Below are positions 1 through 32,646 of a DNA stretch of 64,000 bases, piece by piece. Under the pieces are notes generated by a model, which was not told the DNA's origin, searched no databases, and saw nothing but the letters and a program-made list of their open reading frames with translations. Within the stretch, counting starts at the first letter, position 1. Every line of letters begins with the position of its first letter. This stretch comes from Escherichia phage vB_EcoM-RPN242: sequence record OL656110.1. One strand, given 5' to 3'. A program made the translations under genes and the position numbers.

Positions 1-1802
1 CCTTCCAACGCAGCGATAGAGTTCTCCAGGTCGGTGGTAGGTGTTGGCTGTACAGCCAGTTTACGCTCCAGATCGGCAATAGACGCCACGAGAGGAGCAC
101 GACGGGCTTTCAGCTCGGCGATCTTATCATCGACGGCTTTAATCCCGCTGACGGCATTCTCTCGCGTCTGTTGCAGCGAAGCAGTGATATCTTCAAAACG
201 AACGTTCAGTGCCTTACGGATGTCAAGGATCTTCTGTTGGCATTCACGGTTCAGCGAATTACACTCAATCGTGGCGGCATCATGAAAACCTTGAATATCA
301 CGGCGCAGCTGCTTGATGTTGTCAACGATTTCGTCGGCCTGCTTGCGCATGGCATCCAGTTCAGCATCCAACACAGCAATGTCAGCAACCAGCTTGTCGT
401 CCTGAGCCTTGTGATCATCGATCAGGACATTGATATCGGCGGTAACTTTGTCCAGTTGATCTAACTTCGACTGTAGTTCCTGGATCTGAGGATTGTACTC
501 ACTCTCAATCCGCGCCTTGGTGTCATCAGACACCAGTTGGGTACATGTTGGGCAAGTCCCCATATCGTGGAAGCGCTTGATGGCCGACTGATGCCCCTCC
601 ATTTCAGTCTGGAACTTGATACGGAAGTTCTCACCCTGCTGGCGGCGCTGAATAGCAGCGTTCAGGGTGTCCAGGTTTGTGTTGCGCTCGGTGAGCAGGG
701 TGTTCTTGCGTTCGGCCACTGTAAAGGCGCGGTCACGCAAGACCTGAAGATCATGCTCCGCAGTAGACACTTCGATGCGCTCATAATCGTCAGCCTTGTC
801 CTGCGCGGCGTCCTTCACCGCCTGGATCTTGGCATCAAAGTCTTTCTTGACAGCCTCGATCTCCACCATGGATTCATCATGCAGGCGGCTTTCTACCGTC
901 TTCATTTCCTGGGTGGCTTCAAACTCCACAGCCGTGAGGCGGGTGCGCTCTTCATTCTGGGCGGCGATGTCAGCGTCTAGGGAAGTCAGGGCTTCCTGTT
1001 GCTGTACAAGGATATCGGCCGACTGCTGTTGGATAAGGGCATTGGACCGCTCTATCTGCTGTAGCTGCGTCTTCTTGTTGGTGCGGTCAACAACCTTCAA
1101 CGCACATTCATTCGCGATCGTGTCCAGCTTTTCGTTCGCTTTCTTGATGGCAGCCTTGACATCTTCGTTCATCAGGCTGAAGAAGCCCAAATCCCAGATA
1201 GTCTCCACCATGGCGCGGCGGTCGGCTGTGTACATCTCCGTGAACGGAATGAACTTCTCTTTGCCCAGCACCAGAGAGTTCTCAAACATCTTCTGGTCCA
1301 CGCCGATGAGGTTCACGATGTACTTGTTCATGTCGGCTTTGGCTGCTTCGTTATCGATCTGCAACCACTTGCCGTCCACCATCTGGTAGACTTCAACAAA
1401 GTCAGGTTTAATGCCACGGCGAACCTTCCATTCGCTACCACGGCAGGCAAACTCCACCTCACCCACACATTCCTTGCGGCTCTGTGAGTTAACCAGACCT
1501 GCCTTCTTCTCCTTCTTGCTGTATGTGTCGTTGTACAGTACGAAAAACAGCAGCCATACCAGCATCGTGGATTTACCCGCGCCGTTGTCATCAGACGTAA
1601 CAAGGGTGGCCGGGTTGCGCTGATAATCAATCTCCATGAACTGATTGCCGATGGAGCGGAAGTTCTTGGCGCGGCCTTTGCGGAAGGTCAGTTTGTGTGT
1701 AACAACGTTACGCACTTCAAATGGGACTTCAACCTCGACCGGGGCGTCGGCTTCCTTCAAAAGATTACCAAATTTGGTCAAGATATCTGTGCTCTGAGTC
1801 AT
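1..1802 (-). CDS. 46: SbcC/Rad50-like recombination ATPase (T4 gp46-like), C-terminus beyond window edge
   Basis: Minus-strand frame opens at ATG 1800-1802 and is still open at position 1. N-terminal Walker A DDNGAGKST, long coiled-coil stretch, CPTC zinc-hook-like motif. Sits directly downstream of the SbcD-like gene. Confidence 0.8.
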   Translation of the reverse strand, partial: MTQSTDILTKFGNLLKEADAPVEVEVPFEVRNVVTHKLTFRKGRAKNFRSIGNQFMEIDYQRNPATLVTSDDNGAGKSTMLVWLLFFVLYNDTYSKKEKKAGLVNSQSRKECVGEVEFACRGSEWKVRRGIKPDFVEVYQMVDGKWLQIDNEAAKADMNKYIVNLIGVDQKMFENSLVLGKEKFIPFTEMYTADRRAMVETIWDLGFFSLMNEDVKAAIKKANEKLDTIANECALKVVDRTNKKTQLQQIERSNALIQQQSADILVQQQEALTSLDADIAAQNEERTRLTAVEFEATQEMKTVESRLHDESMVEIEAVKKDFDAKIQAVKDAAQDKADDYERIEVSTAEHDLQVLRDRAFTVAERKNTLLTERNTNLDTLNAAIQRRQQGENFRIKFQTEMEGHQSAIKRFHDMGTCPTCTQLVSDDTKARIESEYNPQIQELQSKLDQLDKVTADINVLIDDHKAQDDKLVADIAVLDAELDAMRKQADEIVDNIKQLRRDIQGFHDAATIECNSLNRECQQKILDIRKALNVRFEDITASLQQTRENAVSGIKAVDDKIAELKARRAPLVASIADLERKLAVQPTPTTDLENSIAALE

Positions 1803-1803
1803 G

Positions 1804-2919
1804 TTATGCATCCAGTTTGTTCAGGCGTTGTTGGGCAGCATTATAGAAGTGCTCTGCCAGTTTACAGACGTTGTCGGGGCGCTGAATGTTGTTCCCGGCG
1901 CGGATATCCTTCTTCAGGACTTCCACCGCATCGGTCGCCACCATCTCTTCGGTGACCTCAACCTTCTCGGCAGCAACAGTAATCGTCCGGTCGATGAAGT
2001 TGTAGTCAATGCACTTACAGCGCTTCATGGCATCACAGAACTTTTCATAATGCTTAGCATTGTCACGGTTCTGTACAATAACCTTAACAATTTGCCCTTC
2101 AATACCCAAGCCTGTGTTCAACCATTCCGGGTCGATCCAATTACCTTCTTCATCAGATGACAACTTGGTGTAATCATATTCCACATAGCGGAACAGCGTC
2201 TGGTGCTCGGCGTTCGGGATAAAGATCTCACCACCACGCATGTCGTCCACATAGAAGCCACGGTTAGTGCCGTCTTTGTAGTCTTCCCAGTTCAGGTGAT
2301 ATGGAGTCCCAATATATTGAATGTTACCTTCCATCGAACGGGTATGGAAATGGCCCGTGTCGACCCTGGTAAACTTGGAAAGCAGAGCAACGTCGATCTG
2401 ACCGTGATCACAAGTAGAAGACTGGTACATTTTGAACCCCGCCAGCTCCAGATGCGCAAAACAGTACTCGGCGTCTGTATCTTGTATCGCTTTAATAGAC
2501 GCATCATAGTTCTCCTTGTTGATCCAAGGCAGCAGCAGAGTCTTGACACCCTCGATCATCACTTCGGTCGGTTCGCTGTAATAGCAGTACACATCCGGGT
2601 CGAGTTCGTTCAGGTAGGATGGCCAGTTGATGCGGTTGGACTCTTCCAGGGTGATGTCATGGTTGCCCACGATGCCATTCCACTTGATACCAGCCGCTTT
2701 CAACGCAGGGGTGAGTTCATCCTTCAGCCAGTCTTTGTCGCGCCCGTACATGAATTTGCGGACATCAAACGTATCACCGAACTGCCAGACCTCTTTGATA
2801 TCAGAGTCGGCAAGTTCAGGAATGAAATAATTGATAAGATAGTTCTTGATGAAGTCGCGAACGTATCGAGAACCATTACGGCTCCCGATATGCAGATCGC
2901 CAATTTTAGCAATCGCCAT
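1804..2919 (-). CDS. 47: SbcD/Mre11-like recombination nuclease (T4 gp47-like)
   Basis: 371-aa ORF with calcineurin-like phosphoesterase motifs GDLHIG, GNHD and GHFH; SD GGGAGA upstream of ATG 2919. Confidence 0.85.
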   Translation of the reverse strand: MAIAKIGDLHIGSRNGSRYVRDFIKNYLINYFIPELADSDIKEVWQFGDTFDVRKFMYGRDKDWLKDELTPALKAAGIKWNGIVGNHDITLEESNRINWPSYLNELDPDVYCYYSEPTEVMIEGVKTLLLPWINKENYDASIKAIQDTDAEYCFAHLELAGFKMYQSSTCDHGQIDVALLSKFTRVDTGHFHTRSMEGNIQYIGTPYHLNWEDYKDGTNRGFYVDDMRGGEIFIPNAEHQTLFRYVEYDYTKLSSDEEGNWIDPEWLNTGLGIEGQIVKVIVQNRDNAKHYEKFCDAMKRCKCIDYNFIDRTITVAAEKVEVTEEMVATDAVEVLKKDIRAGNNIQRPDNVCKLAEHFYNAAQQRLNKLDA

Positions 2920-3697
2920 TGTTCTTTTTCTCCCGTTCTTCTAATCTTTGTTTGAGGGCTTCCCAATCTGGTTCCATCGCACAGATATCATCTTCCAGAT
3001 TGAATTGGGTTTTGCCGAAGTCTTGATCTGAATTGTCTTCGGCCTGCGCTGTTACCGTATTCTTAGCCTGCGCCATGTATTGAAGTATGCCTTTCGCAAT
3101 CTTTTTATTCGATTCTGCGAGACGAGCTGCCTCCACCTTCTCTCGCTCCTTCTGCCTTTGAGCGTCCTTTTTGTTCTCAAAGTTGCCGATACGTTCACGG
3201 AAGTCCATGCCAATTCCTGTAGCATCAACAAAGACCTCTTGTTGGAAGTCGGGATCGTCTGCCAGGCCTGCGAACCCACCCGCCTCTTCAAATGAGCGCA
3301 ATTTAATGTACGTGTGCTCTTCTTCGATATTCAGTTTACGAGCGAATGATCGATCAGCACACATGGTCACCCAAGAGAAGAAGTTGATCTTCCCTTTCTT
3401 TCCAATGTGTTCGACGTCAAATGTGTGGAGGTAGCGCAAGATGTTGACTATTGCTTCAGAGACCATGTCTTCACGGAAGGGATAGTCGCGATAGTTGTAG
3501 CGGGTGCTCATCTTGGTGATGATGCGCTGGACCTGTAGAGCAACATAGTTGGGGATCTTTGGAAGCCTGGTGCCTTCAGCCAGAGCCTTCTTACGAGCAG
3601 GGATCCAATCACGAAGGATACTGATGACACGCTCGTTATCTTCGTCTGTGAAATATTTGACGACATTCTCCCCTCTGTCCACGAAGTTCATTCCCAT
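2906..3697 (-). CDS. 55: late-transcription sigma factor (T4 gp55-like)
   Basis: 263-aa ORF; central region aligns by eye with T4 gp55 conserved blocks; SD GAGGGA 8 nt upstream of the ATG. Confidence 0.75.
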   Translation of the reverse strand: MGMNFVDRGENVVKYFTDEDNERVISILRDWIPARKKALAEGTRLPKIPNYVALQVQRIITKMSTRYNYRDYPFREDMVSEAIVNILRYLHTFDVEHIGKKGKINFFSWVTMCADRSFARKLNIEEEHTYIKLRSFEEAGGFAGLADDPDFQQEVFVDATGIGMDFRERIGNFENKKDAQRQKEREKVEAARLAESNKKIAKGILQYMAQAKNTVTAQAEDNSDQDFGKTQFNLEDDICAMEPDWEALKQRLEEREKKNNGDC

Positions 3698-3708
3698 TAT
3701 GAAATCCC

Positions 3709-4236
3709 TCAGATACCGATAAATTCATCAAAAGATCCAACAACCTTCTTCACCGAGATCTTGTCATTCTCAATCAGGAAGTTGCTGTCGTTTTTGGCTG
3801 CTGTGGCCCAGTCATCGGCAAGTTCGTTGCCTTCGTGCCCCGCATGACCCTTAACCCATTTTAGTTCAACATCACAAATTGAACAAACGAGATCATAGAT
3901 TCTGAACAGATCTTTGATGAGTTCAACGTTCTTTTCTGGGAAACCCTGATACTCCCACTTCGCTCGCCATTCGGTGACGCTCTTGATAGCATATTGGCTG
4001 TCAGACCAAATTGTTGCCTTTGGTATTCTGCGCTCACCCTTTCCTGAGAATGCCCACAGTAGCTTCAATGCGTTGGTCACACCCAACAACTCGGCGATAT
4101 TGTTAGTGGACGGGGGAGGTAGATGACCGAAGAACACCTTCCATTGCATACCCGTTATTGGCCTGATGACAAATGCCCATCCTGCGGCCTGGTTGGTCTT
4201 CGGGTTAGAACCCCCGTCAGAATAAATTTCTATCAT
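3709..4236 (-). CDS. ribonuclease HI (RnhA family)
   Basis: Motifs YSDGGS, NNIAEL, IWSDSQY and WVKGHAGHEGNELAD closely match E. coli RNase HI. Start trimmed to the internal ATG (MIEIYSDGG). Confidence 0.8.
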   Translation of the reverse strand: MIEIYSDGGSNPKTNQAAGWAFVIRPITGMQWKVFFGHLPPPSTNNIAELLGVTNALKLLWAFSGKGERRIPKATIWSDSQYAIKSVTEWRAKWEYQGFPEKNVELIKDLFRIYDLVCSICDVELKWVKGHAGHEGNELADDWATAAKNDSNFLIENDKISVKKVVGSFDEFIGI

Positions 4237-4281
4237 GATATAAATATCCCAAACTGGTTTTATAGAAAGAGGAATGAAACT

Positions 4282-5049
4282 ATGGCACCCCGCGCATATC
4301 GTTTCAGTCTCACCGCCCCGCAGATTGAGCAATTGCTCCTCTCTATCTATGATGCTATCAAGTCAGAAGATATCATCTATGATTATGCTGCAGGTGGGAC
4401 TGCTGGACAAGTCGCAGCAGCTTCTGCTGTCAAGAACATGTGGTTGAAGCTCAACGAGATGGTGACAGGCCAAGGTCTCAAAGATGCCATCAACGATGCA
4501 GAAGACAGCAACGTGTTCACCGACTATTATAAGTCTTTACTGGATCGCGAAGGTTGGAAATTTATTGGATCTCCAGCAGATGAACTTCAGCGAGGCGACA
4601 TCGATACCTCGAACTTCAAAGGTGGTGAGGTCATTCTACTTCAGAAGAACGCTTCGGGCAACCCAGAATTCCAATACTGGAAGCGAACCCCTGTTGCTGG
4701 GGGTGATCCTACCTTTGCATGGGCTTCGGTCTATGAAGGGAACTCCAATGATTCCAGCATAGAGATTCCCGTGGTTGGCACCAGCGTACTCAAGGACATC
4801 CCCAAGGCACTCTTCCATATGATCGAGTTCAGAGTGCATGTCTACGATGAGACACTGGGTCATTGGCAAGACACCGACGGGAAGGTAGGGTATCGTGGCG
4901 AGGATCTGATCTACAGTGTATACAACCATATTCAGACCAAACCTCTCGCCACCATTGACTTCAGCCAAGATACGGACAATATGACGGTTTCTGTAACGTC
5001 GTTGGAACCGAATGTCAAGTGCCATCTGTCCTTCGTTGCGGGTTACTAA
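4282..5049 (+). CDS. hypothetical protein (plus-strand gene, diverges from RNase H gene)
   Basis: 255-aa ORF with SD AAGAGGAA 8 nt upstream of ATG 4282; stop overlaps the convergent helicase gene. Confidence 0.6.
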   Translation: MAPRAYRFSLTAPQIEQLLLSIYDAIKSEDIIYDYAAGGTAGQVAAASAVKNMWLKLNEMVTGQGLKDAINDAEDSNVFTDYYKSLLDREGWKFIGSPADELQRGDIDTSNFKGGEVILLQKNASGNPEFQYWKRTPVAGGDPTFAWASVYEGNSNDSSIEIPVVGTSVLKDIPKALFHMIEFRVHVYDETLGHWQDTDGKVGYRGEDLIYSVYNHIQTKPLATIDFSQDTDNMTVSVTSLEPNVKCHLSFVAGY

Positions 5050-6764
5050 ACCTCAAACACGGCATCAGTGAACCAAGCGGGGAAGAACTCTGGGTTGCGC
5101 ATCATCAGTGATTCAAAAGAAGAATCAAGGATGTACGTCGCAGCCCAGTCATTCACACCCCTGACCGAACGCCCACACATCTGAACGATACGCAGTACCG
5201 CCATCCTGAAGTACGCCGATGGGTCCACGCTGTTGACGTGGGCCACCAGAGGATCACCAAGGTAATCATATGGCACCTTGATCAAGATCTGAAATCGACT
5301 ATAATCGCCTTTGAAGTCATACCCCTCTTCCATGGCCGGACTGGCGATGACACAAGGCGTCTTCGTCCTGAACGCGTGTTCCATGATGTCCATCAGAGCC
5401 TTACGAGTACGAGGAACGTGAATCATATTCCGGTACTTACTGAACTTTTGTAGAGCCAGGGCGCGGTCATAACTGACTGTGTGAATGATGCCAGACTGCC
5501 CAGGGTGGAACGCGATAATTTCATCCACGTATTCAGCCAGCTTCTTCATCTCGTAGTCGCCCATGTTCGCTGTCATCTTCATGATGGGCATGTAGTTGAC
5601 TTTCCGGTTCTCAATCGGGATAGGGTTGCCGATCTGTATCTTGTGGTACTCACCCTCGCGGATACCCAGTGACCGGGCGTACGAGTCAATCCCACAAATG
5701 GTAGCCGACATGTGGACGTGGTAGTCACCCTTGCGGAACAGACCGAACTGGGATACATCAGAGGCGATGACAGGCTTGAACTGAATCATACCCTTGTCCT
5801 TCTCCTGTACGATGAAAGTGCTGGCGTTGGTCTGCCCCATGATACCACAGTAGTCGCTGAGGTTGTGAAGATTATCAATAATATCAGACAGCTTCATCAC
5901 CTGGGCTTCAGTCAGGCGCTCGTCCTCTACCAGTTCCTCAAGAGTTTCCAATAGGGCTTCAACCTTGCCATACAGTTCATCAAATATCGCATGCATCTCA
6001 CCAGACAGGGAATACAGCTTGCCCAATTCGTAGTTCTCTGTGCGGATGATGATATCCTTGATGGTCTCCACGATAGGCACTCCCTCGGGGATCGTAAGCA
6101 ACCCTTCCACAGCCTTTATGTTGTATTCCATGATAGTATGCTCTAGGAGCGTAGAGGGCATCTTATGACACTCGTCAAGGATCAGCATATCGGCACGGTT
6201 TTCCGGCTTCATACAAATCGTCGTACACATCTCCACCATCATGGCGGCGTTGGTGCAGCGCAGGGAGGAGACGTCGGTCCACTGTCTACGCGCCTGAACA
6301 TATGGGCAACGATTCTTACTACAGTGGCCATCACGGCATGCCATACGGCACTGAATGGCGTTGTAGTATAGGTCGGGACTGATGTGGCAACGATAGTTCT
6401 TCTTGCCCTTCAGGATGTCTATCGCCACGGCTTTCTCTGCTGCATACTGATCCTGTAAACCTTTGGTCGGCGTCGTGATAGACGTGCGGAACTGACCATA
6501 CGGGTTGTGCTCAAGAACCAAATGGCGAAGCACGTTATGGATGGTAGTGCCGATGAGGGATTTACCTACACCAGTCGGAGCCTCGATGATCACGTGTTTG
6601 AATTTCTTATTCACAAGGGCATCGATGGCTTCAACGATGCATTCCATCTGGCCGGGGTTGGCGGTGTCATACGGGAAGAACTCAGTGGCAAGAGACTTGA
6701 TGCGGTCTATGCTGACTGGTCCGACGCCGTTAAGCGCCTTGGTATATTGGTTGAATGCTGTCAC
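5046..6764 (-). CDS. DinG/XPD (Rad3)-family Fe-S DNA helicase
   Basis: 572-aa ORF with Walker A EAPTGVGKS, DECH box and a Cys cluster between the motor motifs. GTG start preceded by a strong SD AGGAGG at 6 nt spacing. Confidence 0.8.
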   Translation of the reverse strand: MTAFNQYTKALNGVGPVSIDRIKSLATEFFPYDTANPGQMECIVEAIDALVNKKFKHVIIEAPTGVGKSLIGTTIHNVLRHLVLEHNPYGQFRTSITTPTKGLQDQYAAEKAVAIDILKGKKNYRCHISPDLYYNAIQCRMACRDGHCSKNRCPYVQARRQWTDVSSLRCTNAAMMVEMCTTICMKPENRADMLILDECHKMPSTLLEHTIMEYNIKAVEGLLTIPEGVPIVETIKDIIIRTENYELGKLYSLSGEMHAIFDELYGKVEALLETLEELVEDERLTEAQVMKLSDIIDNLHNLSDYCGIMGQTNASTFIVQEKDKGMIQFKPVIASDVSQFGLFRKGDYHVHMSATICGIDSYARSLGIREGEYHKIQIGNPIPIENRKVNYMPIMKMTANMGDYEMKKLAEYVDEIIAFHPGQSGIIHTVSYDRALALQKFSKYRNMIHVPRTRKALMDIMEHAFRTKTPCVIASPAMEEGYDFKGDYSRFQILIKVPYDYLGDPLVAHVNSVDPSAYFRMAVLRIVQMCGRSVRGVNDWAATYILDSSFESLMMRNPEFFPAWFTDAVFEV

Positions 6765-6809
6765 TTTCTTCCTCCTATGGGATTCGCCTTTAGTTTAACC
6801 GATTCCCAG

Positions 6810-6846
6810 GAACGAAAAAGCCGGAGCATTGTACTCCGGCTTTCTC
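6810..6846 (-). terminator. intrinsic terminator after HU gene
   Basis: 9-bp stem AAGCCGGAG/CTCCGGCTT with T-rich flanks on both strands. Confidence 0.55.
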
Positions 6847-6892
6847 TTTTGCCATACCCTGATTGCAGAGCCTGGCCGCGCGTCAGATAGAA

Positions 6893-7171
6893 TTACTTGC
6901 CGTTGGCAGCGTTCTTCAGACCTTCGCCCACTTTGAATTTCACAACGTTTTTCGCCGCGATCTGAATGGTCTGGCCGTTCAGAGGGTTGCGACCTTCACG
7001 CGCTTCTTGGTGTTTCACTTCGAACGCACCGAAGCCAACCAGCTGTACAGATGCGCCTGCAGCAACTGCAGTTTTAACACCGTCGATAAAGGATGCCACT
7101 ACTTTCTCCGCTTCGCCTTTGGTGATATTCTGGGTCGAAGCAATGTGGGCAACAAATTCAGTACGATTCAT
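6893..7171 (-). CDS. HU/IHF-family histone-like DNA-binding protein
   Basis: 92-aa ORF; NRTEFVAHIA...GRNPLNGQTIQIAAKNVVKFKVG matches the HU fold signature (RNP-G-T arm); SD GGAGA. Confidence 0.85.
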   Translation of the reverse strand: MNRTEFVAHIASTQNITKGEAEKVVASFIDGVKTAVAAGASVQLVGFGAFEVKHQEAREGRNPLNGQTIQIAAKNVVKFKVGEGLKNAANGK

Positions 7172-7264
7172 CTGGATTTCTCCGTTGGGTTAATGTTTAC
7201 TTTCATGTTCACTACAAGAGGACTACATCTTACCTAACAAAACATATTGAATAAAGCGAAATTA

Positions 7265-12228: not shown

Positions 12229-12552
12229 TTATTTGCGCAGGGCAACCACGAGTTCAGCGAGTTCACCAATGGTCGGGTCATCACCTTTACTACCCAGCCA
12301 ACCGTCGTCGATTTCGACCTGAAACTCTTCTTCTAGTTCCATTACGATTTCGATGGCATCCAGTTCGTCACCGCCGAGGTCTTTCTTGGTACGGAGACCA
12401 GCCAGCTTGTCCAGGGCGTCCTCGTTCTGAGATGCCACGTCGTCCAGCAATTTGCGCTTGTCATCGTCACGCCACAGATCCATATTCAGATTGTCAGTGG
12501 CGTACTGAGCCAGATGACGCATGACTTCAACATATGTTGGTTTACTGCTCAT
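12229..12552 (-). CDS. acyl-carrier-protein-like protein with Ser-to-Glu substitution at the phosphopantetheine site
   Basis: KKDLGGDELDAIEIVMELEEEFQVEIDD aligns with E. coli ACP [28 protein letters not shown]. The attachment Ser is encoded here as GAA (Glu), confirmed by reading the codon. SD GGGAGAA. Confidence 0.7.
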   Translation of the reverse strand: MSSKPTYVEVMRHLAQYATDNLNMDLWRDDDKRKLLDDVASQNEDALDKLAGLRTKKDLGGDELDAIEIVMELEEEFQVEIDDGWLGSKGDDPTIGELAELVVALRK

Positions 12553-14796: not shown

Positions 14797-15004
14797 TGTT
14801 CTCTTCGCCTTGTGCGTAAGGGTTAAGTTCAGACTCATCAGCGGCTTCGATGCGCGTCTTTACAGAGTCCAGCATATTGTTGATAAACTCACGAGACTGC
14901 TCCAGCTGAGCCAAGAGCACATCCTTTGGAGCATAGTTCTGAATGCAAGCCGGAATACTTTCAGACGTCGCCTTCAGGTCGGTAAAACATTCTTTCAGTA
15001 TCAT
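14789..15004 (-). CDS. hypothetical protein
   Basis: 71-aa ORF; its end overlaps the vWA gene start by 8 nt; weak SD. Confidence 0.45.
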   Translation of the reverse strand: MILKECFTDLKATSESIPACIQNYAPKDVLLAQLEQSREFINNMLDSVKTRIEAADESELNPYAQGEENND

Positions 15005-15086
15005 TTGATCTCACTTAACAGAGACGACACCCTGTTGGGATTTAATAGCGGTCTTCACGCGCCAGGGGTGATAGAATCACCGTAGA

Positions 15087-15320
15087 TCAGGCCGATGTGC
15101 TCATCCAACAGGAAGTGCCCAGTTTCAAAGATCTCCCACAGGCGCTGGATAGAGCCAACCGCTTCTGAACGTCTGATGATTTGATGTGAGCATCAATCAC
15201 CACGTTCTGAACATGGCCGATAGGGATACCAGATTTTTGAATCTTGATATGTTCCTCACCACCTGGGAAGGTGAAGTGTTTGTAGAACACATCTTGGTCG
15301 TTCAATTTCAAACGAAACAT
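15087..15320 (-). CDS. hypothetical protein (possible frameshifted gene continuing to about 15055)
   Basis: 77-aa ORF with SD GAGGT; the C-terminal 27 aa are low-complexity while another frame carries a more protein-like continuation. Confidence 0.4.
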   Translation of the reverse strand: MFRLKLNDQDVFYKHFTFPGGEEHIKIQKSGIPIGHVQNVVIDAHIKSSDVQKRLALSSACGRSLKLGTSCWMSTSA

Positions 15321-15428
15321 AATGTAACCTCATGGTGTATTGTACAGCCGTATTATACTGTGATGTACAAATTGAAACGCCCAGCATTTACGCTGGACGT
15401 TATTGATATTGAAAAGGTTTTGACAAAC

Positions 15429-15662
15429 TCAGGATTTGGAGGAAGCGCCCTTCCATGTCTGACGTTTGTAGTGGGAAGCCATGGCCATCGACCCGGCGTA
15501 TTGCGTTTCACCCCTGACCACCACAGCCACAACCAGCTTATGTCGTAACAGGAAGTCCAGACCTGACTTAGACGGGATATCGCCAATGCTCAGTGGACCA
15601 CGATTGTACAGGGCATACATGGTGTCAAGCGCCGCCCCGGTAAAGATAATCTCTTTAGACAT
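15429..15662 (-). CDS. hypothetical protein
   Basis: 77-aa ORF from the internal ATG (MSKEIIFTG...). Confidence 0.4.
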   Translation of the reverse strand: MSKEIIFTGAALDTMYALYNRGPLSIGDIPSKSGLDFLLRHKLVVAVVVRGETQYAGSMAMASHYKRQTWKGASSKS

Positions 15663-15669
15663 GGCGGTC

Positions 15670-15975
15670 TCACTTAAACGAGTCAACGATGGATGTAAGA
15701 ATTTCGGGGGTGGGTTTGGCGTCTTGTGGTTCACGGAAACCCACCTTTGCGATGCGGCCCAAGACATTGTACACTTCGCGCGGAAGGGTGTCTACGACCG
15801 TGTCCGACATGAACGCCACGTCTTCTTGGATGGCGTTGTATTCGGCCAGTTTAGCCAGTTCTGATTCTACCAGGGACTTCAGCTTTTGCAATGGGTCGTT
15901 GCAATAGTTGAGACGGTTGCAGTTGGTGAGCGCCTGAGTTAGATTCTCAAACGCTTCTTGTATTTCCTTTGACAT
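15670..15975 (-). CDS. hypothetical protein
   Basis: 101-aa ORF from ATG 15975 with SD GAGG (track start is an upstream TTG). Confidence 0.45.
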   Translation of the reverse strand: MSKEIQEAFENLTQALTNCNRLNYCNDPLQKLKSLVESELAKLAEYNAIQEDVAFMSDTVVDTLPREVYNVLGRIAKVGFREPQDAKPTPEILTSIVDSFK

Positions 15976-16357
15976 TGATATGTGCCTCGTATTGTTGACA
16001 GACAACAACTACTTTACGGCACATGTCGATATCGAACAAGCCAATATGACACTCACGCTTCTTTATCCCCAGCTTATGCGCCAGCCAACTATAAGCGTCG
16101 CTCCTGCTCCTCTCTCCGCTTTTCCACAATGGGTCAAACGATCTATGGGCTTCCTGCTTAGCAGCACGGAGAGCGGCATTCGCCATCCTTCCCAAAGGTT
16201 GTCTGCCGTCGCCATGGGTATGGCAACCGACACGGGCATCACATGGAGTGCACACCCAGAACTTCAGATTGCGGAGGTCAGGGCGATGAGGGTAGAGAAC
16301 ATCACCACCGACGAATTCGGCTGGGAGGCCGCAGTAATCACAAATGACAGGTTTCAT
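15947..16357 (-). CDS. Cys-rich zinc-ribbon protein
   Basis: MKPVICDYCGLPAEF...VCTPCDARVGCHTHGDG carries paired Cys motifs; the track start is a GTG, trimmed here to the ATG. Confidence 0.5.
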   Translation of the reverse strand: MKPVICDYCGLPAEFVGGDVLYPHRPDLRNLKFWVCTPCDARVGCHTHGDGRQPLGRMANAALRAAKQEAHRSFDPLWKSGERSRSDAYSWLAHKLGIKKRECHIGLFDIDMCRKVVVVCQQYEAHINVKGNTRSV

Positions 16358-16361
16358 ATTC

Positions 16362-16393
16362 TTTGTCCAAAAGAAACCCCGCACATGGCGGGG
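16362..16393 (-). terminator. intrinsic terminator after gene 16418..16789
   Basis: CCCCGC-acatg-GCGGGG hairpin followed on the minus strand by TTTCTTTT. Confidence 0.6.
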
Positions 16394-16417
16394 TTGCTCA
16401 GGCTGAGGTCAGACAGA

Positions 16418-16789
16418 TTATTTCAGGAGTGCTTCCAGTTCTTCAACAGATTTGCTTTCCAGCTCTTGCTGTTTCTTACGTTGGATCAGCTCCAGGATAA
16501 CCTGGTTGTTCGCCTTACGCTCTGCCGCTTCTCTGCTGTCGTCACGTTCTTTCAGCTTAACGCCGATGATGTGCTTGACAACGTCGAAGCGCAGCTGCAG
16601 TTCGGAGTCAACGTTGCTTTTGGTACCAATGAAATCTTCTTCATCGGTTTCTGCTGCTTTCACCTGACGGCTCAGACCTTTCGCCATTTCGTTCAGGGCA
16701 GTCAGGCTCAGGTCCCAGACCTGCTCAACAGACAGCAGACCTTTGTTAGACTCGAAGCGCAGTTTCATACGGGTTGCTTTATCAAACAT
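16418..16789 (-). CDS. hypothetical protein
   Basis: 123-aa ORF with SD GAGGA 8 nt upstream; followed by an intrinsic terminator. Confidence 0.55.
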   Translation of the reverse strand: MFDKATRMKLRFESNKGLLSVEQVWDLSLTALNEMAKGLSRQVKAAETDEEDFIGTKSNVDSELQLRFDVVKHIIGVKLKERDDSREAAERKANNQVILELIQRKKQQELESKSVEELEALLK

Positions 16790-16833
16790 TTTACTATCCT
16801 CAATGATGAATGGGTTACAATTTCAAATCAGGT

Positions 16834-18852
16834 TTAGAACACAACTTTCACAGTGCGGTTGAACGAACCGCTCACCTTCACGAACACGTGGTTGCGTTGG
16901 GTGGTAGAGAAGCCCAGACCGGACAGCTGCTCAGTGCTTGGCTGTACTTTAATCTTACCACCTAACATTTCAAAAACCTTGCGGTGTTTATCAAGTTCCG
17001 GCTTCAGATATTCGTTATAGAAACCACGGGTGCCGACAGGGTTAGCACAACCTTCCAGGATGAAGAACACGTGCTTGTTGCCAGTCTGCTCGCCGTCCCA
17101 ATGGTTTGGTGAGTTCAGAACCAGCTGTACCTTCTGGAAGACGGAGGTCTTGATGCCCCAGATTTCCTGAGAGCGAGCGTCGTCTTTCAGGGTAGAACTG
17201 ATGTCAACCACCTGACCAGCGCGAACCTGAACCACAACAGCCAACGTGCGATCTTTGTTGCCCAGGCCAGGGTGTGAGAAGCGCTTAGTCTGGCCTTTGT
17301 ATTCAACTTCGATTTCGAAACCAACGTCACAGGTTTCACGCTTGTTGAAGTTGGTGACATAGAACTCATAATTCCCGTCACGCAACTTGCGTTCATCGCT
17401 AAAGAAGATGTTCTCCACCGGACGGCGGTTTGGATCAATGCCGTCCATACCGTTCATGTCGATGTCCAGAGTTGCGCCAGTTGTCGAACGACGGTTGCGA
17501 AAATATACGTGGTTGTGAAGAGGATCGTTCATGCTCAGATCCAGGTCGTCGTTGTTATGCCAAGCCAGTGACACGCGGAGGAAGCTGTCGACATTGCCGC
17601 CTGCGGTCTTCACGCGCTCTTTGATGGAGTCGGCCACTTCGCCATTGTACGACCAGCTGAAGCCGTTGTTCCACTTGAACAGGTTAGGAGCGCCTGCGGT
17701 AGCCGGAGCGATCAGGGACATCAGGTTGCCAATGTGAGAGTTTTCGACCAGCACTTCTAGGGAATGCGCCTTTGGCAACACGTTGGTCAGGAAGTCGTCG
17801 ATCGTGATCTCTTCAACCTTGTCCAGGGACTTTGTCGGAGTCTTCACTTCAGACGCCAGCTGAGCAAACGGGTCCATCTTCTTCTGAGCTGCCAGATCGG
17901 CGAACAGAACGTTGTTGATGGTCAGATCGTCATACACGGCATAACGGCGACCCAGTGAATCAGTCAGACCCAGCGCTTCGACTTCTTTCTGCGCGTTTTC
18001 AATCATCGACTTCGTGACCAGCGCGGTTGGGCGCTTGTAGTTCGTCGGAGCGACTTTGGCTTCAAAGGACTTCACGGCGGTTTCCAGATCCCGGCCTTCA
18101 TTGAGGTCTACCAGCAGAGAGCCAATCACGGTATTACGAATGCCGTGAGGGGTATGACCGTTTGCACGGTAGCCAGTGCGCCAAGCCCACAGAGCGCGTT
18201 TCTCTTCTGCAGTTTGTTCGTACAGGGTCTTGTTCACCACGAACGCCTGCACTGCCGCTTTGTGCTCTTCACCGCGATACAGAGAATTCTGGTCGATCAA
18301 TTCCAGAACGATTTCAGCCGATTCCAGAGACAGTTCACGCAGGCCGCGCTCAAACACTTCAATCGCCTGGCGGATTTCACCCTTCTTAGAAGCGATGGTA
18401 TCTGCCCGCAGAACATAGCTGCTCAGCAGGTCGGTGTGGAAGTGGTTGTAGGTGCGGACAATACCGTCTTTCATTTCGTGATTCGACCCAACACCAACTT
18501 TCTTGGTGTCGTTGAAGTACACGTCGACGATTGCGTGCTGCTTAACATATGCTGACAGCGCCGCAGCGACAACGTCGTATTCGTTACCCAACTGAATGTT
18601 ATCCCAGATAGAGATCACGTTCAGGTCGGAGTCGATGGTGACCACACCGCCGATGTTACGGATGAATTGTTTACAGCAGGTGCAGTCGTGCTCGGTACGC
18701 TCACGATAAAGCGGGTTAGTGCCAGCAGGGAAAGAAGACAGATACAGATCCCACAGAGCATCTTTATCGATGTTGGTCATGAACAGACCAGTTGCTGACA
18801 TGGCCCGCACGTTATTGTTGACAGCTACTGCGAAGGACTTAAAATCTGACAT
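16834..18852 (-). CDS. hypothetical large protein (672 aa)
   Basis: Long ORF with SD AGGAAG; no motif I can assign. Confidence 0.65.
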   Translation of the reverse strand: MSDFKSFAVAVNNNVRAMSATGLFMTNIDKDALWDLYLSSFPAGTNPLYRERTEHDCTCCKQFIRNIGGVVTIDSDLNVISIWDNIQLGNEYDVVAAALSAYVKQHAIVDVYFNDTKKVGVGSNHEMKDGIVRTYNHFHTDLLSSYVLRADTIASKKGEIRQAIEVFERGLRELSLESAEIVLELIDQNSLYRGEEHKAAVQAFVVNKTLYEQTAEEKRALWAWRTGYRANGHTPHGIRNTVIGSLLVDLNEGRDLETAVKSFEAKVAPTNYKRPTALVTKSMIENAQKEVEALGLTDSLGRRYAVYDDLTINNVLFADLAAQKKMDPFAQLASEVKTPTKSLDKVEEITIDDFLTNVLPKAHSLEVLVENSHIGNLMSLIAPATAGAPNLFKWNNGFSWSYNGEVADSIKERVKTAGGNVDSFLRVSLAWHNNDDLDLSMNDPLHNHVYFRNRRSTTGATLDIDMNGMDGIDPNRRPVENIFFSDERKLRDGNYEFYVTNFNKRETCDVGFEIEVEYKGQTKRFSHPGLGNKDRTLAVVVQVRAGQVVDISSTLKDDARSQEIWGIKTSVFQKVQLVLNSPNHWDGEQTGNKHVFFILEGCANPVGTRGFYNEYLKPELDKHRKVFEMLGGKIKVQPSTEQLSGLGFSTTQRNHVFVKVSGSFNRTVKVVF

Positions 18853-18966
18853 GATGTAATCTTCCTGTTTCAGTTCAAATGTGCGCCCCGTTTGCCAGGG
18901 CGCTTCGTTTAAGTGAGGTCAGTATACGCTGGATTGAGTTATTGAAGAACGAAGTAAAGGGAATCT

Positions 18967-19896
18967 TTATTCAGAAGAACCATATCGTTCTGTCCATTTA
19001 GGACATTTCAAAGGTTCCCACCCTCTATTGAAACGTTCGATAATGCTGTTTGTCGCATTAAAAGCCTTCAGGTCTTTTGTTCTGTACACATGCATGAGGG
19101 CTTCCGCTCTTTTCATTGTTTTTATTGCTTCAAGGAATTTATCAGCTTTTGACCAATACGCATCATTGTCGGGGTTCCATTTACCCTTCTCCCAAGGCAT
19201 CTTAGCCAACATGCCTTTCTGAGCGTTTTCTTTCTGTTTGGCGCGTTGCTCTGGTGTGAATGAGTTGGTTAAGTCCTTCCCATAATTGGGATTGAGTTCC
19301 CCAAGTTTAGCTTTACTGGCACGTTCAGAAAATTGTTCTAAATCTATGTTGGCGCGGCGTTTCTCTAAAACCCGCCTTTTATATTCAGGATCAGAAGCCA
19401 TCCTTTCATGGATTTTCATCAATCCTTTGGTAATTTTCTTGACTTGCTCTGGGGTTCTCTTATATCCATATTGGGGATTATTCTTTCCTCTTCTCCCATA
19501 CATTGGGTTGTTTGCCCCGACGCATTTGGAGACACCCTTTGTGAGTTTGGATATTCTTTGTCCAAATTCTTTCCTTAACTTTTCGTAAAGGTGAGAATTA
19601 AATTTTATACCCGTTGGTGTATACCTACCCCCACGGCTCATCAAAAGAACAGCATATACCATATCAGAATTCGGGAAAGCCAAGGCCAAGCATACATGGA
19701 CAAGATAATGTTGTCTGCCTGTTAATCGAACCAAATTTATCTTATCTTTAGAATATTCAGGGAACATGCTCTTGGGAAGGATGTGGTGCAATTCAGTGTA
19801 GTCACCATCAGAATATTTGAAAGATTGAACCATCATCAAATACTTCTTGATGAAATGCGGTTTACCGCCTTTAGAAATCAATAATTCGTAAAACAT
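18967..19896 (-). CDS. HNH homing endonuclease with NUMOD-like repeats (free-standing)
   Basis: HNH core TELHHILPKSMFPEYSKDKINLVRLTGRQHYLVH plus repeated NPMYGRRGKNNPQYG motifs; sits between core genes. Confidence 0.8.
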   Translation of the reverse strand: MFYELLISKGGKPHFIKKYLMMVQSFKYSDGDYTELHHILPKSMFPEYSKDKINLVRLTGRQHYLVHVCLALAFPNSDMVYAVLLMSRGGRYTPTGIKFNSHLYEKLRKEFGQRISKLTKGVSKCVGANNPMYGRRGKNNPQYGYKRTPEQVKKITKGLMKIHERMASDPEYKRRVLEKRRANIDLEQFSERASKAKLGELNPNYGKDLTNSFTPEQRAKQKENAQKGMLAKMPWEKGKWNPDNDAYWSKADKFLEAIKTMKRAEALMHVYRTKDLKAFNATNSIIERFNRGWEPLKCPKWTERYGSSE

Positions 19897-19955: not shown

Positions 19956-21149
19956 TTACTTTTTAAATAAATTTAGTAGGTTTTTAGAACCAGATGTCGC
20001 TTTAGGTTGTCCTTCCCCATCGTATCCAACCTTCCCGCGCGGTTTTTTACCTTGCTGTACAGCCTCTACACAACGGGTATATTTCTGAAGTTCACAAAAC
20101 ATATTTTCTCCTGCCATTATATTTAAATGGCGATCCCAAGGCTCTTCCACAGACCAAAATTCTTCCCTGTTATACCCAAGAGGACCATAAACTGCGTCCT
20201 GGTTGTCCCGTAGCCAGAAGATGCATTCTTCGTGGGTCATACCGTCTTTGTTCAGGAACAGCAGATCAATACCTGCGCGACAGCCTGGTCCAGCAACCGT
20301 GAAGTGGTTCTCACTGAAAGGATATTCAGGAATGTAAGTGAAGTCTACCCAGATCTGATAGGCCAGGAATGGACCAAGCCCTTCGATGTCGTCATACATG
20401 CGCTGGTATACTTCCAAAGGAGTACCAAGGCGCAGCAGGTCATGGAAATAATTTGGATACTTGTTGACGAATGCCTTCAGGGAGCGGATGACACGCATTG
20501 GCATGTACGGTTCCCAACCTTCGATGGTGTAGAAGTCCGGCTCTGCTTCGGCTATCGCCTTGGCTTCTTTATAATCCATGTTCTGGGTTGAACCGTCTTT
20601 ACAGATCAGATTCACCATCATCCCACCGAAGCGCTGCTCCTTGTGGTTGACAACCATCTCAGGGAAAGCCAGGCATTGCTTCAGGCCGCCCGTGTTGAAG
20701 GCATTGGTGAATACCTTACCGCCGTCGGCCTCGAACTTCTGAAGTCGTTCGCGGGTTGCATCGAGGTTGATCTCGGCGAATTCTTTGATCGTCATCGCGC
20801 CGCCGATAGCCTGGATTGGATCCCAGAGGTTGAACATGCGGAACATCACGCAGTTGAACATCTTGTCGGCCATACCCAGAGCATCGTTGTTGACAATGTT
20901 GTTGATCAGGTTGAGAGACTGCCTGTCGTGCTCTCTCCGGACATTACAGAACTTGACCTGCCGTAGTATGGGATTATCAGTCCAAGGAGCAGGAAGGCGC
21001 TGGACGTCCTTCTTGACGTGGATCTGATAACGATCGCGCATCCATTCGTAAGACAGGCGGGTATGGGTCGGACTGAGAACCGGTTTGGCCGACTTTATCT
21101 TTTCTTCACGGACACCGCAGTACGGGACGTCTAGGGCTTTATCTTTCAT
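19956..21149 (-). CDS. hypothetical protein (397 aa)
   Basis: ORF with good SD AGAGGA 5 nt upstream; no assignable motif. Confidence 0.65.
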   Translation of the reverse strand: MKDKALDVPYCGVREEKIKSAKPVLSPTHTRLSYEWMRDRYQIHVKKDVQRLPAPWTDNPILRQVKFCNVRREHDRQSLNLINNIVNNDALGMADKMFNCVMFRMFNLWDPIQAIGGAMTIKEFAEINLDATRERLQKFEADGGKVFTNAFNTGGLKQCLAFPEMVVNHKEQRFGGMMVNLICKDGSTQNMDYKEAKAIAEAEPDFYTIEGWEPYMPMRVIRSLKAFVNKYPNYFHDLLRLGTPLEVYQRMYDDIEGLGPFLAYQIWVDFTYIPEYPFSENHFTVAGPGCRAGIDLLFLNKDGMTHEECIFWLRDNQDAVYGPLGYNREEFWSVEEPWDRHLNIMAGENMFCELQKYTRCVEAVQQGKKPRGKVGYDGEGQPKATSGSKNLLNLFKK

Positions 21150-21217: not shown

Positions 21218-22090
21218 TTAATCGATACGGGTCAGTTGGGTGATAGATGATTGCACTGGGCTGGCCACATAGATACGGACGTTGGCTTTCCATTCACCCC
21301 AGATCAACGGCAGAGTTGGGAAGTTGTCTTCATTGAAAACAAACACGGGAATGTAGCTCTCGACTGTTTCGCCAGAGAACGCCTGAAAGCCCATCTTGGT
21401 GTATCCCATGATCTCGTCAATAAAATCGAACGGAGCGAAGGCAACACCAGCGTGTTCGTTAGAACCGAGCTGGCCTGGAATGGCCGTGCCCGTCAGAATG
21501 ATTTCGGTGATCTGGCGCTTAGGCTCGGTGGTCAACATATCAGAGAAGTCAGGCTCTTTGAAGGTTGCCATGTTCTTCAGGAACTTGCCAGCCGGGTACT
21601 CTTTGCCGTCGACAGTGATGGTGTCCACCACTTTGATGCACGCCTGAGGGAATTCCCCTTCGATGCGCAGACTTTCGCGTGGGAAGCCTTTGTTGTAGTA
21701 GTAATCCAGTGCAGGCACAACTTCACCTTCATTACGGATGAACTTGCTCATGTTAGAGGCATACACGCGCTGTAGGCATTCGTCACCGTCGAAACCAGCA
21801 ATATGAGCCACACCGTCGTTGACTGTTGTGATGTCGCCCTGGGCGTCCATGATCTGGCGCATGATGTCTTTGATGTCGACAACAACGGGTTCTTTCAGGA
21901 CTCGCGGAGATGCAGTGAACTCAATTTTCACCTCGTGGTCGAAATACGCCGCTTCCAGCAGTTCACGGGTTTCTTCCAGCACCAGTTTCGCCTGATTGCG
22001 GATCTTACCAAAGTCGGGCGATGTGACGTCGCCCTTTGCATTACCGAAAGCCAGATTCAGATTCACGTTCTTGGAAAATGTAGTTGTCAT
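21218..22090 (-). CDS. hypothetical protein (290 aa)
   Basis: ORF with SD GGAG; followed by a terminator hairpin at 21171-21195. Confidence 0.6.
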   Translation of the reverse strand: MTTTFSKNVNLNLAFGNAKGDVTSPDFGKIRNQAKLVLEETRELLEAAYFDHEVKIEFTASPRVLKEPVVVDIKDIMRQIMDAQGDITTVNDGVAHIAGFDGDECLQRVYASNMSKFIRNEGEVVPALDYYYNKGFPRESLRIEGEFPQACIKVVDTITVDGKEYPAGKFLKNMATFKEPDFSDMLTTEPKRQITEIILTGTAIPGQLGSNEHAGVAFAPFDFIDEIMGYTKMGFQAFSGETVESYIPVFVFNEDNFPTLPLIWGEWKANVRIYVASPVQSSITQLTRID

Positions 22091-32354: not shown

Positions 32355-32386
32355 GGGCAATAATACCTCTCGCCCCGTTATTGAAA
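32355..32386 (-). repeat. 32-bp conserved intergenic element, copy B
   Basis: GGGCAATAATACCTCTCGCCCCGTTATTGAAA, identical to 32615-32646; ends about 26 nt upstream of the next start codon. Confidence 0.7.
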
Positions 32387-32614: not shown

Positions 32615-32646
32615 GGGCAATAATACCTCTCGCCCCGTTATTGAAA
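32615..32646 (-). repeat. 32-bp conserved intergenic element, copy A
   Basis: Identical to 32355-32386; ends about 25 nt upstream of ATG 32590. Confidence 0.7.

Follow-up and report, generated by a model that had tools for sequence, protein, structure and literature searches.

An HU-family (DNABII) protein carried by enterobacterial Ackermannviridae, compared with TF1, bacterial HU and IHF

In TF1, the HU-type protein of Bacillus phage SPO1, Phe61 at the arm tip is important, and the preference of TF1 was reportedly ascribed by Grove and Geiduschek to the flexibility of hmU DNA. According to a salt-bridge model for residues 3 and 26, Asp26 sequesters Lys3, which leads to short binding sites; in TF1, which has no Asp26, Lys3 contacts flanking DNA and 37 bp are occupied (as cited in PMC2528193). 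Another DNABII protein encoded by a virus, pA104R of ASFV, is a late structural protein (PMC12882912). In phage ViI, gp160 is one of five proteins whose mixed lysates turn 5-hmdU DNA to 5-(2-aminoethoxy)methyl-dU (5-NeOmdU) (PMC5889632), and gp247 is a serine:DNA transferase (PMC8989533). Measurements put 5-NeOmdU at about 40% of T in four phages, ViI, CBA120, CBA6 and Vibrio phage 1.255.O (PMC5889632); the value for a Taipeivirus is 16% (bioRxiv 10.64898/2026.05.19.726188). Thymidine hypermodification in Ackermannviridae is partial, at 16-40% in three lineages of the family (same two sources).

The original prediction concerned a stretch of 64,000 nucleotides of Escherichia phage vB_EcoM-RPN242 (OL656110.1), referred to here at its full length as the window. 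It reported a canonical, phage-encoded HU-family protein in the early region and proposed, by analogy with TF1, that this protein may be adapted to modified phage DNA. Our in silico analysis confirmed that the HU-type ORF is real and partly supported this interpretation. The gene as such is already known, being annotated and named in hundreds of deposited Ackermannviridae genomes. The gene, its signals and its downstream neighbor lie as follows:

6893-7171, minus strand: coding sequence of the HU-family (DNABII) protein, ATG start, 92 aa, stop codon at 6893-6895
7180-7183, minus strand: Shine-Dalgarno sequence GGAG, 8 nt before the ATG, read from the sequence
7209-7258, minus strand: conserved upstream block CGCTTTATTCAATA-N12-TAAGAT-GTAGTCCTCTTGTAGTGA, a candidate promoter of the TTCAATA-box class
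6808-6843, minus strand: intrinsic terminator downstream of the HU gene, a GC-rich hairpin followed by UUUUUCGUU
5046-6764, minus strand: DinG/Rad3-like helicase, the invariant downstream neighbor of the HU gene

Residues 1-90 of the 92-aa protein align with all 90 positions of Pfam family PF00216 (Bac_DNA_binding; E 6.1e-30), with a score of 103.8 bits vs a curated cutoff of 22.4. Further matches are PHROG 379 ('DNA binding protein', E 4e-36) and 36 solved chains of HU, IHF or TF1, the best being HU of B. anthracis (E 8e-20; phmmer against PDB chains). Its sequence is 100% identical to that of the HU proteins of Escherichia phage ZQ1 and Salmonella phage Marshall. Two longer plus-strand ORFs that overlap the gene, at 6863-7237 and 6966-7193, found no support and were set aside as shadow ORFs.

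While PF00216, the fold and the arm tip place the protein in the HU family, the term 'canonical' has to be qualified. It scored below the cutoff of every NCBI equivalog model for HU-alpha, HU-beta, IHF-alpha and IHF-beta (55-73 vs 111-162 bits). The individual values were 69.7 bits vs 157 for HU-beta (NF007945), 67.3 bits vs 162 for HU-alpha (NF008023), and 72.9, 67.9, 62.7 and 55.3 bits vs cutoffs of 111-120 for the IHF alpha and beta models. Since none of these cutoffs was reached, we place the phage protein in a separate subfamily within DNABII.

That the gene is phage-encoded was borne out by its surroundings. Agtrevirus phages, YX22, PC3 and AV101 among them, share about 98% identity with the window. 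Over the 4.5 kb around the HU gene, identity is 97-98.6% to Escherichia phages YX22, PC3, PH4, A221 and ZQ1, 96.6% to AV101, and about 91-92% to Shigella phage Ag3 and Salmonella phage SKML-39. All eight belong to the genus Agtrevirus of the Ackermannviridae (PMC10791037). Using tblastn, we found one HU locus per genome, with protein identities of 97-100% in Agtrevirus, 96.7% in Limestonevirus, about 85% in Kuttervirus (ViI, CBA120-like), 75-77% in Taipeivirus, 51% in Miltonvirus and 48% in Nezavisimistyvirus.

In these six enterobacterial genera the gene occupies a fixed slot directly upstream of the DinG/Rad3-like helicase, from which it is separated by a gap of about 125-140 nt containing the terminator. 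Past the helicase come an opposite-strand ORF, RNase H, the late sigma factor gp55, gp47 and gp46. The HU-helicase-RNase H order is present in AV101, ViI, phiMAM1, Bue1, May and Kamild, and 21 IMG/VR loci show an identical order of the three genes. The remaining viral HUs that were retrieved are at most 50% identical and lie in unrelated contexts. The gene is under purifying selection, with pairwise dN/dS values of 0.10-0.23. According to a 2024 comparative study, the core genes of enterobacterial Vi01-like phages include a 'putative DNA binding protein' located behind the helicase (PMC10892097).

In several GenBank records the gene is called 'DNA-binding protein HU-beta', a name that implies recent capture of a host hupB or hupA gene without any phage-specific role. 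Alignment gave 40% identity to E. coli HU-alpha, 41% to HU-beta, 43% to HBsu and 38% to a TF1 homologue. A blastn search with the HU gene against 5,426 complete E. coli genomes returned no match, and the HU-beta model was missed by the wide gap given above. In a neighbor-joining tree the phage HUs form their own clade, with a bootstrap value of 92% for the core and 59% when phiMAM1 and Bue1 are included, and this clade groups neither with E. coli HU nor with TF1. Together with the family-wide synteny and the purifying selection, these sequence comparisons effectively refute recent host capture. The low identity to known HUs, the missing E. coli match, the separate clade and the equivalog scores rather point to an old DNABII subfamily resident in phages. 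Orthology to TF1 was likewise ruled out by alignment and scores. The names 'HU-beta' and 'transcription factor 1' found in GenBank are over-specific and could mislead. A second HU paralogue, as a partner for a heterodimer, was also considered and rejected: ViI Vi01_008 is annotated 'histone family DNA-binding' and has no Pfam DNABII match.

The explanation that we favor is that HU is a vertically inherited core gene of enterobacterial Ackermannviridae and encodes a phage-specific HU/DNABII architectural protein for replication, recombination and/or transcription. We assign this reading as a whole a probability of about 0.55.

An AlphaFold2 monomer model, built on 53 homologues, has a mean pLDDT of 96.6. 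It comprises helices 3-14 and 18-37, strands 42-44, 48-55, 58-61, 68-71 and 74-81, and a helix at 83-89. This is the HU arrangement, in which two N-terminal helices are followed by a sheet, from which a beta-ribbon arm protrudes, and by a C-terminal helix. Foldseek against the PDB returned HU/IHF matches with a probability of 1.00 and TM scores up to 0.90, including 0.88 for the Anabaena HU-DNA co-crystal.

The arm residues were then compared with those of TF1 and host HU. The tip R58-E-G-R61-N62-P63 is intact in the window protein and HU-like. In the clade alignment, which comprises the window protein and 18 homologues, R58 is found in 18 of the 19 members and G60, R61, N62 and P63 in all of them. 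These five residues are also kept in phiMAM1 and Bue1, which were compared separately. The core residues G46, F47, G48, F50 and F79 are kept as well. One residue departs from the usual HU pattern: the DNA-contacting and near-universal Arg55 is replaced with Gln in 19/19 clade members, so that DNA binding could differ unpredictably from that of textbook HU.

Position 26 is an alanine in 18 clade members and an asparagine in one, and an arginine or a lysine in phiMAM1 and Bue1; no acidic residue occurs here, in contrast to the E26 or D26 of E. coli HU and HBsu. Residues that are invariant in the clade and unlike cellular HUs are R3, A8, E20, E22, V25, A26 (with the single exception just given), G31, A35, S41, Q43, E51, K53, Q55, L64, E83, K86 and A89. 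Since residue 26 is never acidic and residue 3 is basic, the phage protein may, by analogy with the salt-bridge model, wrap a longer DNA site than E. coli HU.

The likeness to TF1 is partial: R3 and A26 are present, and Asp26 is absent as in TF1. It does not extend to orthology or to the arm tip and tail. R61 is invariant in the clade where TF1 has Phe61 and the TF1 homologue of SPO1L2 has a tyrosine, and the C-terminus, ...NAANGK, extends no more than 2 residues past that of E. coli HU. Besides being 38% identical to the TF1 homologue vs 40-43% to E. coli HU and HBsu, it scores 45-46 bits with TF1 vs 74 bits with B. anthracis HU (phmmer).

The same residues bear on the idea of a host-directed factor that would compete or heterodimerize with E. 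coli HU-alpha/beta and so perturb the nucleoid, transcription or HU-dependent defense or repair. The dimerization core (F47, F50, F79, G46 and G48) is conserved with host HU, and the pI of 9.7 and net charge of +4 equal those of host HU (pI 9.6-9.7). A pre-late placement of the gene would fit takeover. However, the protein is only 40% identical to host HU and its dimer-interface helices 1 and 2 are changed (A8, E20, E22, V25, A26, G31 and A35). Moreover, the gene lies in a replication/recombination block and not among small early takeover genes. We consider such a host-directed role quite improbable.

Regarding expression, the GGAG Shine-Dalgarno sequence is kept in 5 of the 6 genera aligned, Bue1 having GGGA. 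Upstream of it, a block of about 50 nt is conserved in all six genera above the level of the flanking intergenic DNA. The box-to-'-10' core of this block, TTCAATA-N12-TAAGAT, lies at 7227-7251. The pattern TTCAATA-N11-14-TAnnnT occurs 4 times in the window vs 0.51 expected, each time on the coding strand and between genes. A motif of the same class recurs, in the coding direction, at the loci of ViI, phiMAM1, Bue1, Vibrio D493 and Aeromonas phiA8-29. We therefore propose the TTCAATA-box element as a candidate promoter of the HU gene. A sigma-70 consensus scan upstream of the gene found no promoter. GTAARCTRTA, a sequence common to the HU and helicase leaders of other genera, was rejected as a signal, as it is not enriched in the window (12 vs 8.5 expected). 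An Rfam search around the gene gave nothing above noise, and the HU 5' leader folded no better than shuffles, which argues against a structured leader.

Downstream, the 93-nt stretch 6800-6892 containing the terminator hairpin has an MFE of -38.6 kcal/mol (z about -3.8). The position of the terminator is conserved in all genera aligned, and the annotation of Klebsiella phage May includes it as such.

A late-type motif, ACTAAATA, has 7 matches in the window, all on the coding strand, vs 1.2 expected, and no fewer than five of these immediately precede structural genes. The HU leader does not contain the motif. The missing late-type motif, the TTCAATA element and the gene neighbors favor pre-late expression from a promoter of its own. 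The assignment of the gene to the 'early region' is plausible; HU sits among pre-late replication/recombination genes. Searches of the searchable literature turned up no study of the expression, binding or knockout of an Ackermannviridae HU.

These signals also speak to a possible role in the virion. Packaged DNA-binding proteins have been described for some other viruses and phages, and a small and basic protein such as this one might condense DNA and aid packaging or ejection of the hypermodified genome. Nevertheless, besides having no late-promoter-like motif upstream, the gene is far from the structural module. The 39 proteins detected by mass spectrometry in virions of LIMEstone1, whose lineage has an HU 96.7% identical to ours, do not include HU (PMC3296691). 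It is also missing from the accessible part of the virion mass spectrometry table of Sajous1 (PMC10892097), although a 10-kDa basic protein can escape detection by this method. The phage HU does not appear to be a virion component, and we give a packaged role only a very small chance. Both interference with host HU and a virion role are less likely than the architectural role that we favor.

The original prediction had cautioned that DNA modification in this phage was itself only inferred. This caveat is largely lifted by two adjoining genes of the window and by the gene content of its relatives:

19956-21149, minus strand: orthologue of ViI gp160 (aG/PT-PPlase1), PF18723, E 1.8e-78
21218-22090, minus strand: MazG-like nucleotide pyrophosphohydrolase, PHROG 2144, E 4e-132, adjoining the gp160 orthologue

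The product of the first gene is 76% identical to ViI Vi01_130c (= orf00160 = gp160), and the MazG-like gene is syntenic with ViI Vi01_131c. For this 397-aa PF18723 protein, a role as 5-hmdU DNA kinase was considered and rejected, since a Walker A motif is missing and the protein is instead the gp160 orthologue. Orthologues of gp247 with 87-88% identity are found in the closest relatives, PH4 and SKML-39. Ag3 and SKML-39 are 5-HMUDK-encoding phages in the list of Lee et al. We found no direct 5-NeOmdU measurement for an Agtrevirus in the literature.

Whether HU goes together with modified DNA can be read from its distribution. Orthologues of gp160 and gp247 are present in about 62 ViI-like phages of Vibrio that have no detectable HU, in the sense that neither of two independent HU tblastn searches had Vibrio among its ten most frequent organism names, each of which accounts for at least 10 records. 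The DinG-like helicase is present in 77 Vibrio records, and no HU was found upstream of it in Vibrio phage D492. The helicase slot of Acinetobacter phage SH-Ab 15599, a phage with a different thymidine hypermodification (PMC13458397), also holds no HU, and the HU-helicase pairing was not found in Aeromonas phiA8-29. As these Vibrio phages have the modification genes but no detectable HU, HU is not needed to handle such DNA and an adaptation to it would not be obligatory. Its absence from Vibrio and Acinetobacter relatives that keep the helicase block indicates that it is dispensable in part of the family. Conversely, HU genes also occur in many phages without a known hmU pathway (among them SPbeta-like, Ralstonia and Flavobacterium phages).

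These distributions weigh on the proposal that the protein is a functional analogue of TF1, which would prefer the phage's own 5-hmdU/5-NeOmdU DNA and either regulate phage transcription, for instance through shut-off of early promoters, or shape the placement of the hypermodification. The phage lineage does carry the 5-NeOmdU pathway. We know of no MotA/AsiA-type regulators in Ackermannviridae, and a TF1-like regulator would make up for the lack of MotA, AsiA, Alt and ModA. Early/middle regulation in ViI-like phages is unexplained (PMC3184105). The non-acidic residue 26, the A26-S27-F28 stretch of most clade members and Glu83 instead of Lys are as in TF1. In addition, DNABII genes were apparently acquired separately in SPO1-like phages, enterobacterial Ackermannviridae and Tedavirus, all of which have hmU-derived DNA or genes for it.

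Against this stand R61 instead of Phe/Tyr61, G48 instead of Leu, the missing C-terminal tail and a sequence no closer to TF1 than to any HU, as well as the Vibrio phages and the many HU-bearing phages outside the hmU pathway described above. Furthermore, HU arms bind the minor groove, while C5 substituents lie in the major groove. On balance, functional analogy with TF1 appears unlikely, and we are somewhat more doubtful of its most specific form. This would be a convergent TF1 counterpart in which R3 without an acidic residue 26, Q55, L64 and E83 are tuned to 5-hmdU/5-NeOmdU, with the resulting distinction of self from non-self DNA driving the early-to-middle transcription switch or patterning the hypermodification.

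In the architectural role that we favor, the protein would act as a homodimer, as expected from one HU gene per genome and by homology to solved HU-DNA complexes. Its two beta-ribbon arms would enter the minor groove, where insertion of Pro63 would kink the DNA, so that DNA would be bound and bent with little sequence specificity. The gene would form its own small transcription unit, consisting of the TTCAATA-box promoter-like element, the Shine-Dalgarno sequence, the coding sequence and the strong terminator. This unit would head the helicase / RNase H / gp55 / gp47 / gp46 block and would most likely be expressed before the late genes. In this way the phage would supply a DNA-bending accessory factor of its own for an intracellular genome that contains 5-hmdU/5-NeOmdU.

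As it stands, the result is a routine annotation. Its modest interest lies in a phage-supplied HU in a family with a positively charged thymidine hypermodification and unexplained early/middle regulation. If the protein did discriminate modified DNA, it would be the second DNABII protein after TF1 to read phage DNA modification and could be a useful reagent for hmU and 5-NeOmdU DNA.

Within the Ackermannviridae, the HU of Aeromonas phiA8-29 (Tedavirus) is likewise a DNABII protein (PF00216, E 7.5e-22), and its phage has gp160 and gp247 orthologues. In contrast to the HU described here, to which it is about 36% identical, its place is between a DnaB-like helicase and rIIA instead of ahead of the DinG-like helicase. 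In the phage collection, its nearest relatives outside Aeromonas phages are other HUs (44-48%), such as one in an Arsenophonus record, and it looks like a separate acquisition. ASFV pA104R shares the virus-encoded DNABII fold (Foldseek TM 0.67-0.68), but it is 24% identical and belongs to a eukaryotic virus. It also differs in its late structural role, the phage HU not having been detected in virions.

IHF alpha/beta shares the superfamily and the fold, and an IHF-alpha model gives the best NCBIfam score (72.9 bits). That a single-chain IHF is the top PDB sequence hit is due to its two domains. Unlike IHF, the phage protein has HU length without the IHF C-terminal extension and, being encoded by one gene only, would not form an alpha/beta heterodimer.

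The bacterial HUs (HU-alpha/beta, HBsu, 3rhi and Anabaena 1p51/1p71) resemble it more broadly: they match PF00216 over the full length, have about 90 aa and superpose with TM scores of 0.79-0.88. An RNP arm tip that includes the intercalating Pro63 and the Phe core are found in both, and pI and net charge are similar. They differ in their identity of 40-45% and in clade-invariant substitutions, the phage protein having Q55 for R55, A26 for D/E26, L64 for Q64 and E83 for K/A83. They also differ in that the phage HU is encoded by a lytic phage, as one gene only, in a replication/recombination block. TF1 (1wtu/1exe) is alike in being a phage-encoded DNABII protein of the single-gene homodimer type, as predicted for the phage HU, from a phage with hmdUMP-derived DNA, with an identical A26-S27-F28 stretch and Glu83. 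It departs from the phage HU by Leu48 in place of Gly48 and by a 9-residue C-terminal tail (TF1 chains have 99 aa and the SPO1L2 copy 101 aa vs 92 aa), and the mature DNA of Ackermannviridae consists of T plus 5-NeOmdU instead of full hmU substitution (PMC5889632).

The window contains an orthologue of gp160 (aG/PT-PPlase1), one of the five proteins of phage ViI that together reconstitute 5-NeOmdU, and two further genes flank it:

18967-19896, minus strand, HNH/NUMOD3 homing endonuclease (PHROG 655, E 4e-61)
19956-21149, minus strand, gp160 orthologue (PF18723, E 1.8e-78; 76% identity to ViI Vi01_130c)
21218-22090, minus strand, MazG-like pyrophosphatase, adjoining the gp160 orthologue

Since the gp160 orthologue and the MazG-like gene are both present, part of the machinery for thymidine hypermodification to 5-NeOmdU lies inside the window. 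In the close relative AV101 and in other records, the orthologue is named just "hypothetical protein". The name of its Pfam family would make the product a kinase, an identity that we ruled out because the Walker A motif is absent. The homing endonuclease gene lies between a conserved 672-aa ORF and the gp160 orthologue; the corresponding gap in ViI spans only about 110 nt.

On its other side, the 672-aa ORF borders a region that differs from AV101. There, genes for a nicotinamide phosphoribosyltransferase and a ribose-phosphate pyrophosphokinase lie between a VWA-domain gene and the 672-aa ORF (positions 646-3161 of the AV101 locus), while in the window (around 15000-16840) this pair is replaced by a few small ORFs and one of 285 aa, which has no match in Pfam or PHROG. 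This region is a variable island of the kind described for Agtrevirus (PMC10791037).

15980-16837, plus strand, 285-aa ORF of the island
4123-5049, plus strand, conserved ORF on the opposite strand, flanked by the RNase H and helicase genes

A Pfam search with the second of these ORFs gave no match. Going by size and position, the neighbouring ORF93 in LIMEstone1, whose 28.3-kDa product is listed as an "unknown structural protein" and was found in virions, may be its counterpart; if so, the ORF of the window would be a structural gene within the replication block.

Downstream of the HU terminator, a leader kept across genera precedes the helicase gene:

6765-6816, minus strand, helicase leader
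12229-12552, minus strand, acyl-carrier-protein-like ORF (PF00550, E 8e-7; syntenic with ViI Vi01_122c)

The conserved sequence of the leader is TTCCTGGGAATCGG(G/T)TAAACTA...GGAGG, and its GGTAAACT(A/T)A is similar to GGTAAGCTGTA of the HU leader, a decamer showing no overall enrichment in the window. Regarding the HU protein itself, the best PDB match of its AlphaFold2 model (Foldseek) was 9a4h chain B, an integrative model of the B. subtilis ACP-HBsu complex. The match may be coincidental; both partners, ACP-like and HU, are phage-encoded within about 5 kb. Near rIIA/rIIB, ViI has a gene whose annotation reads "histone family DNA-binding" (Vi01_008, 6626-7129 of the ViI locus), probably the "putative histone like protein" given as a core gene in PMC10892097. 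This annotation looks unsupported, because Vi01_008 neither matches DNABII in Pfam nor resembles the HU protein of the window.

Motif searches yielded two candidate promoter classes:

7227-7251, 18921-18946, 32360-32385 and 32620-32645, all minus strand, TTCAATA-N11-14-TAnnnT
27031, 36524, 42792, 47069, 53579, 58985 and 61647, all minus strand, ACTAAATA

The first motif has 4 matches in the window vs 0.51 expected, every one intergenic and on the coding strand, and the same architecture (TTCAATAA, 11-13 nt, TAT(A/T)AT) was found again in loci of ViI, phiMAM1, Bue1, Vibrio D493 and Aeromonas phiA8-29. In Ackermannviridae this motif may represent a class of early/middle promoters. The spacing is too short for the TTCAATA box to be a sigma-70 -35 element; the box is more like one at -30, as exemplified by the MotA box of T4, although Ackermannviridae have no known MotA or AsiA. 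According to a 2011 report, ViI-like phages still lacked an identified late consensus (PMC3184105). With 7 copies vs 1.2 expected, all 7 on the coding strand and at least 5 just 5' of structural genes (scaffold, sheath, VriC, tail spikes), ACTAAATA is a late-promoter candidate that can be compared with TATAAATA of T4.
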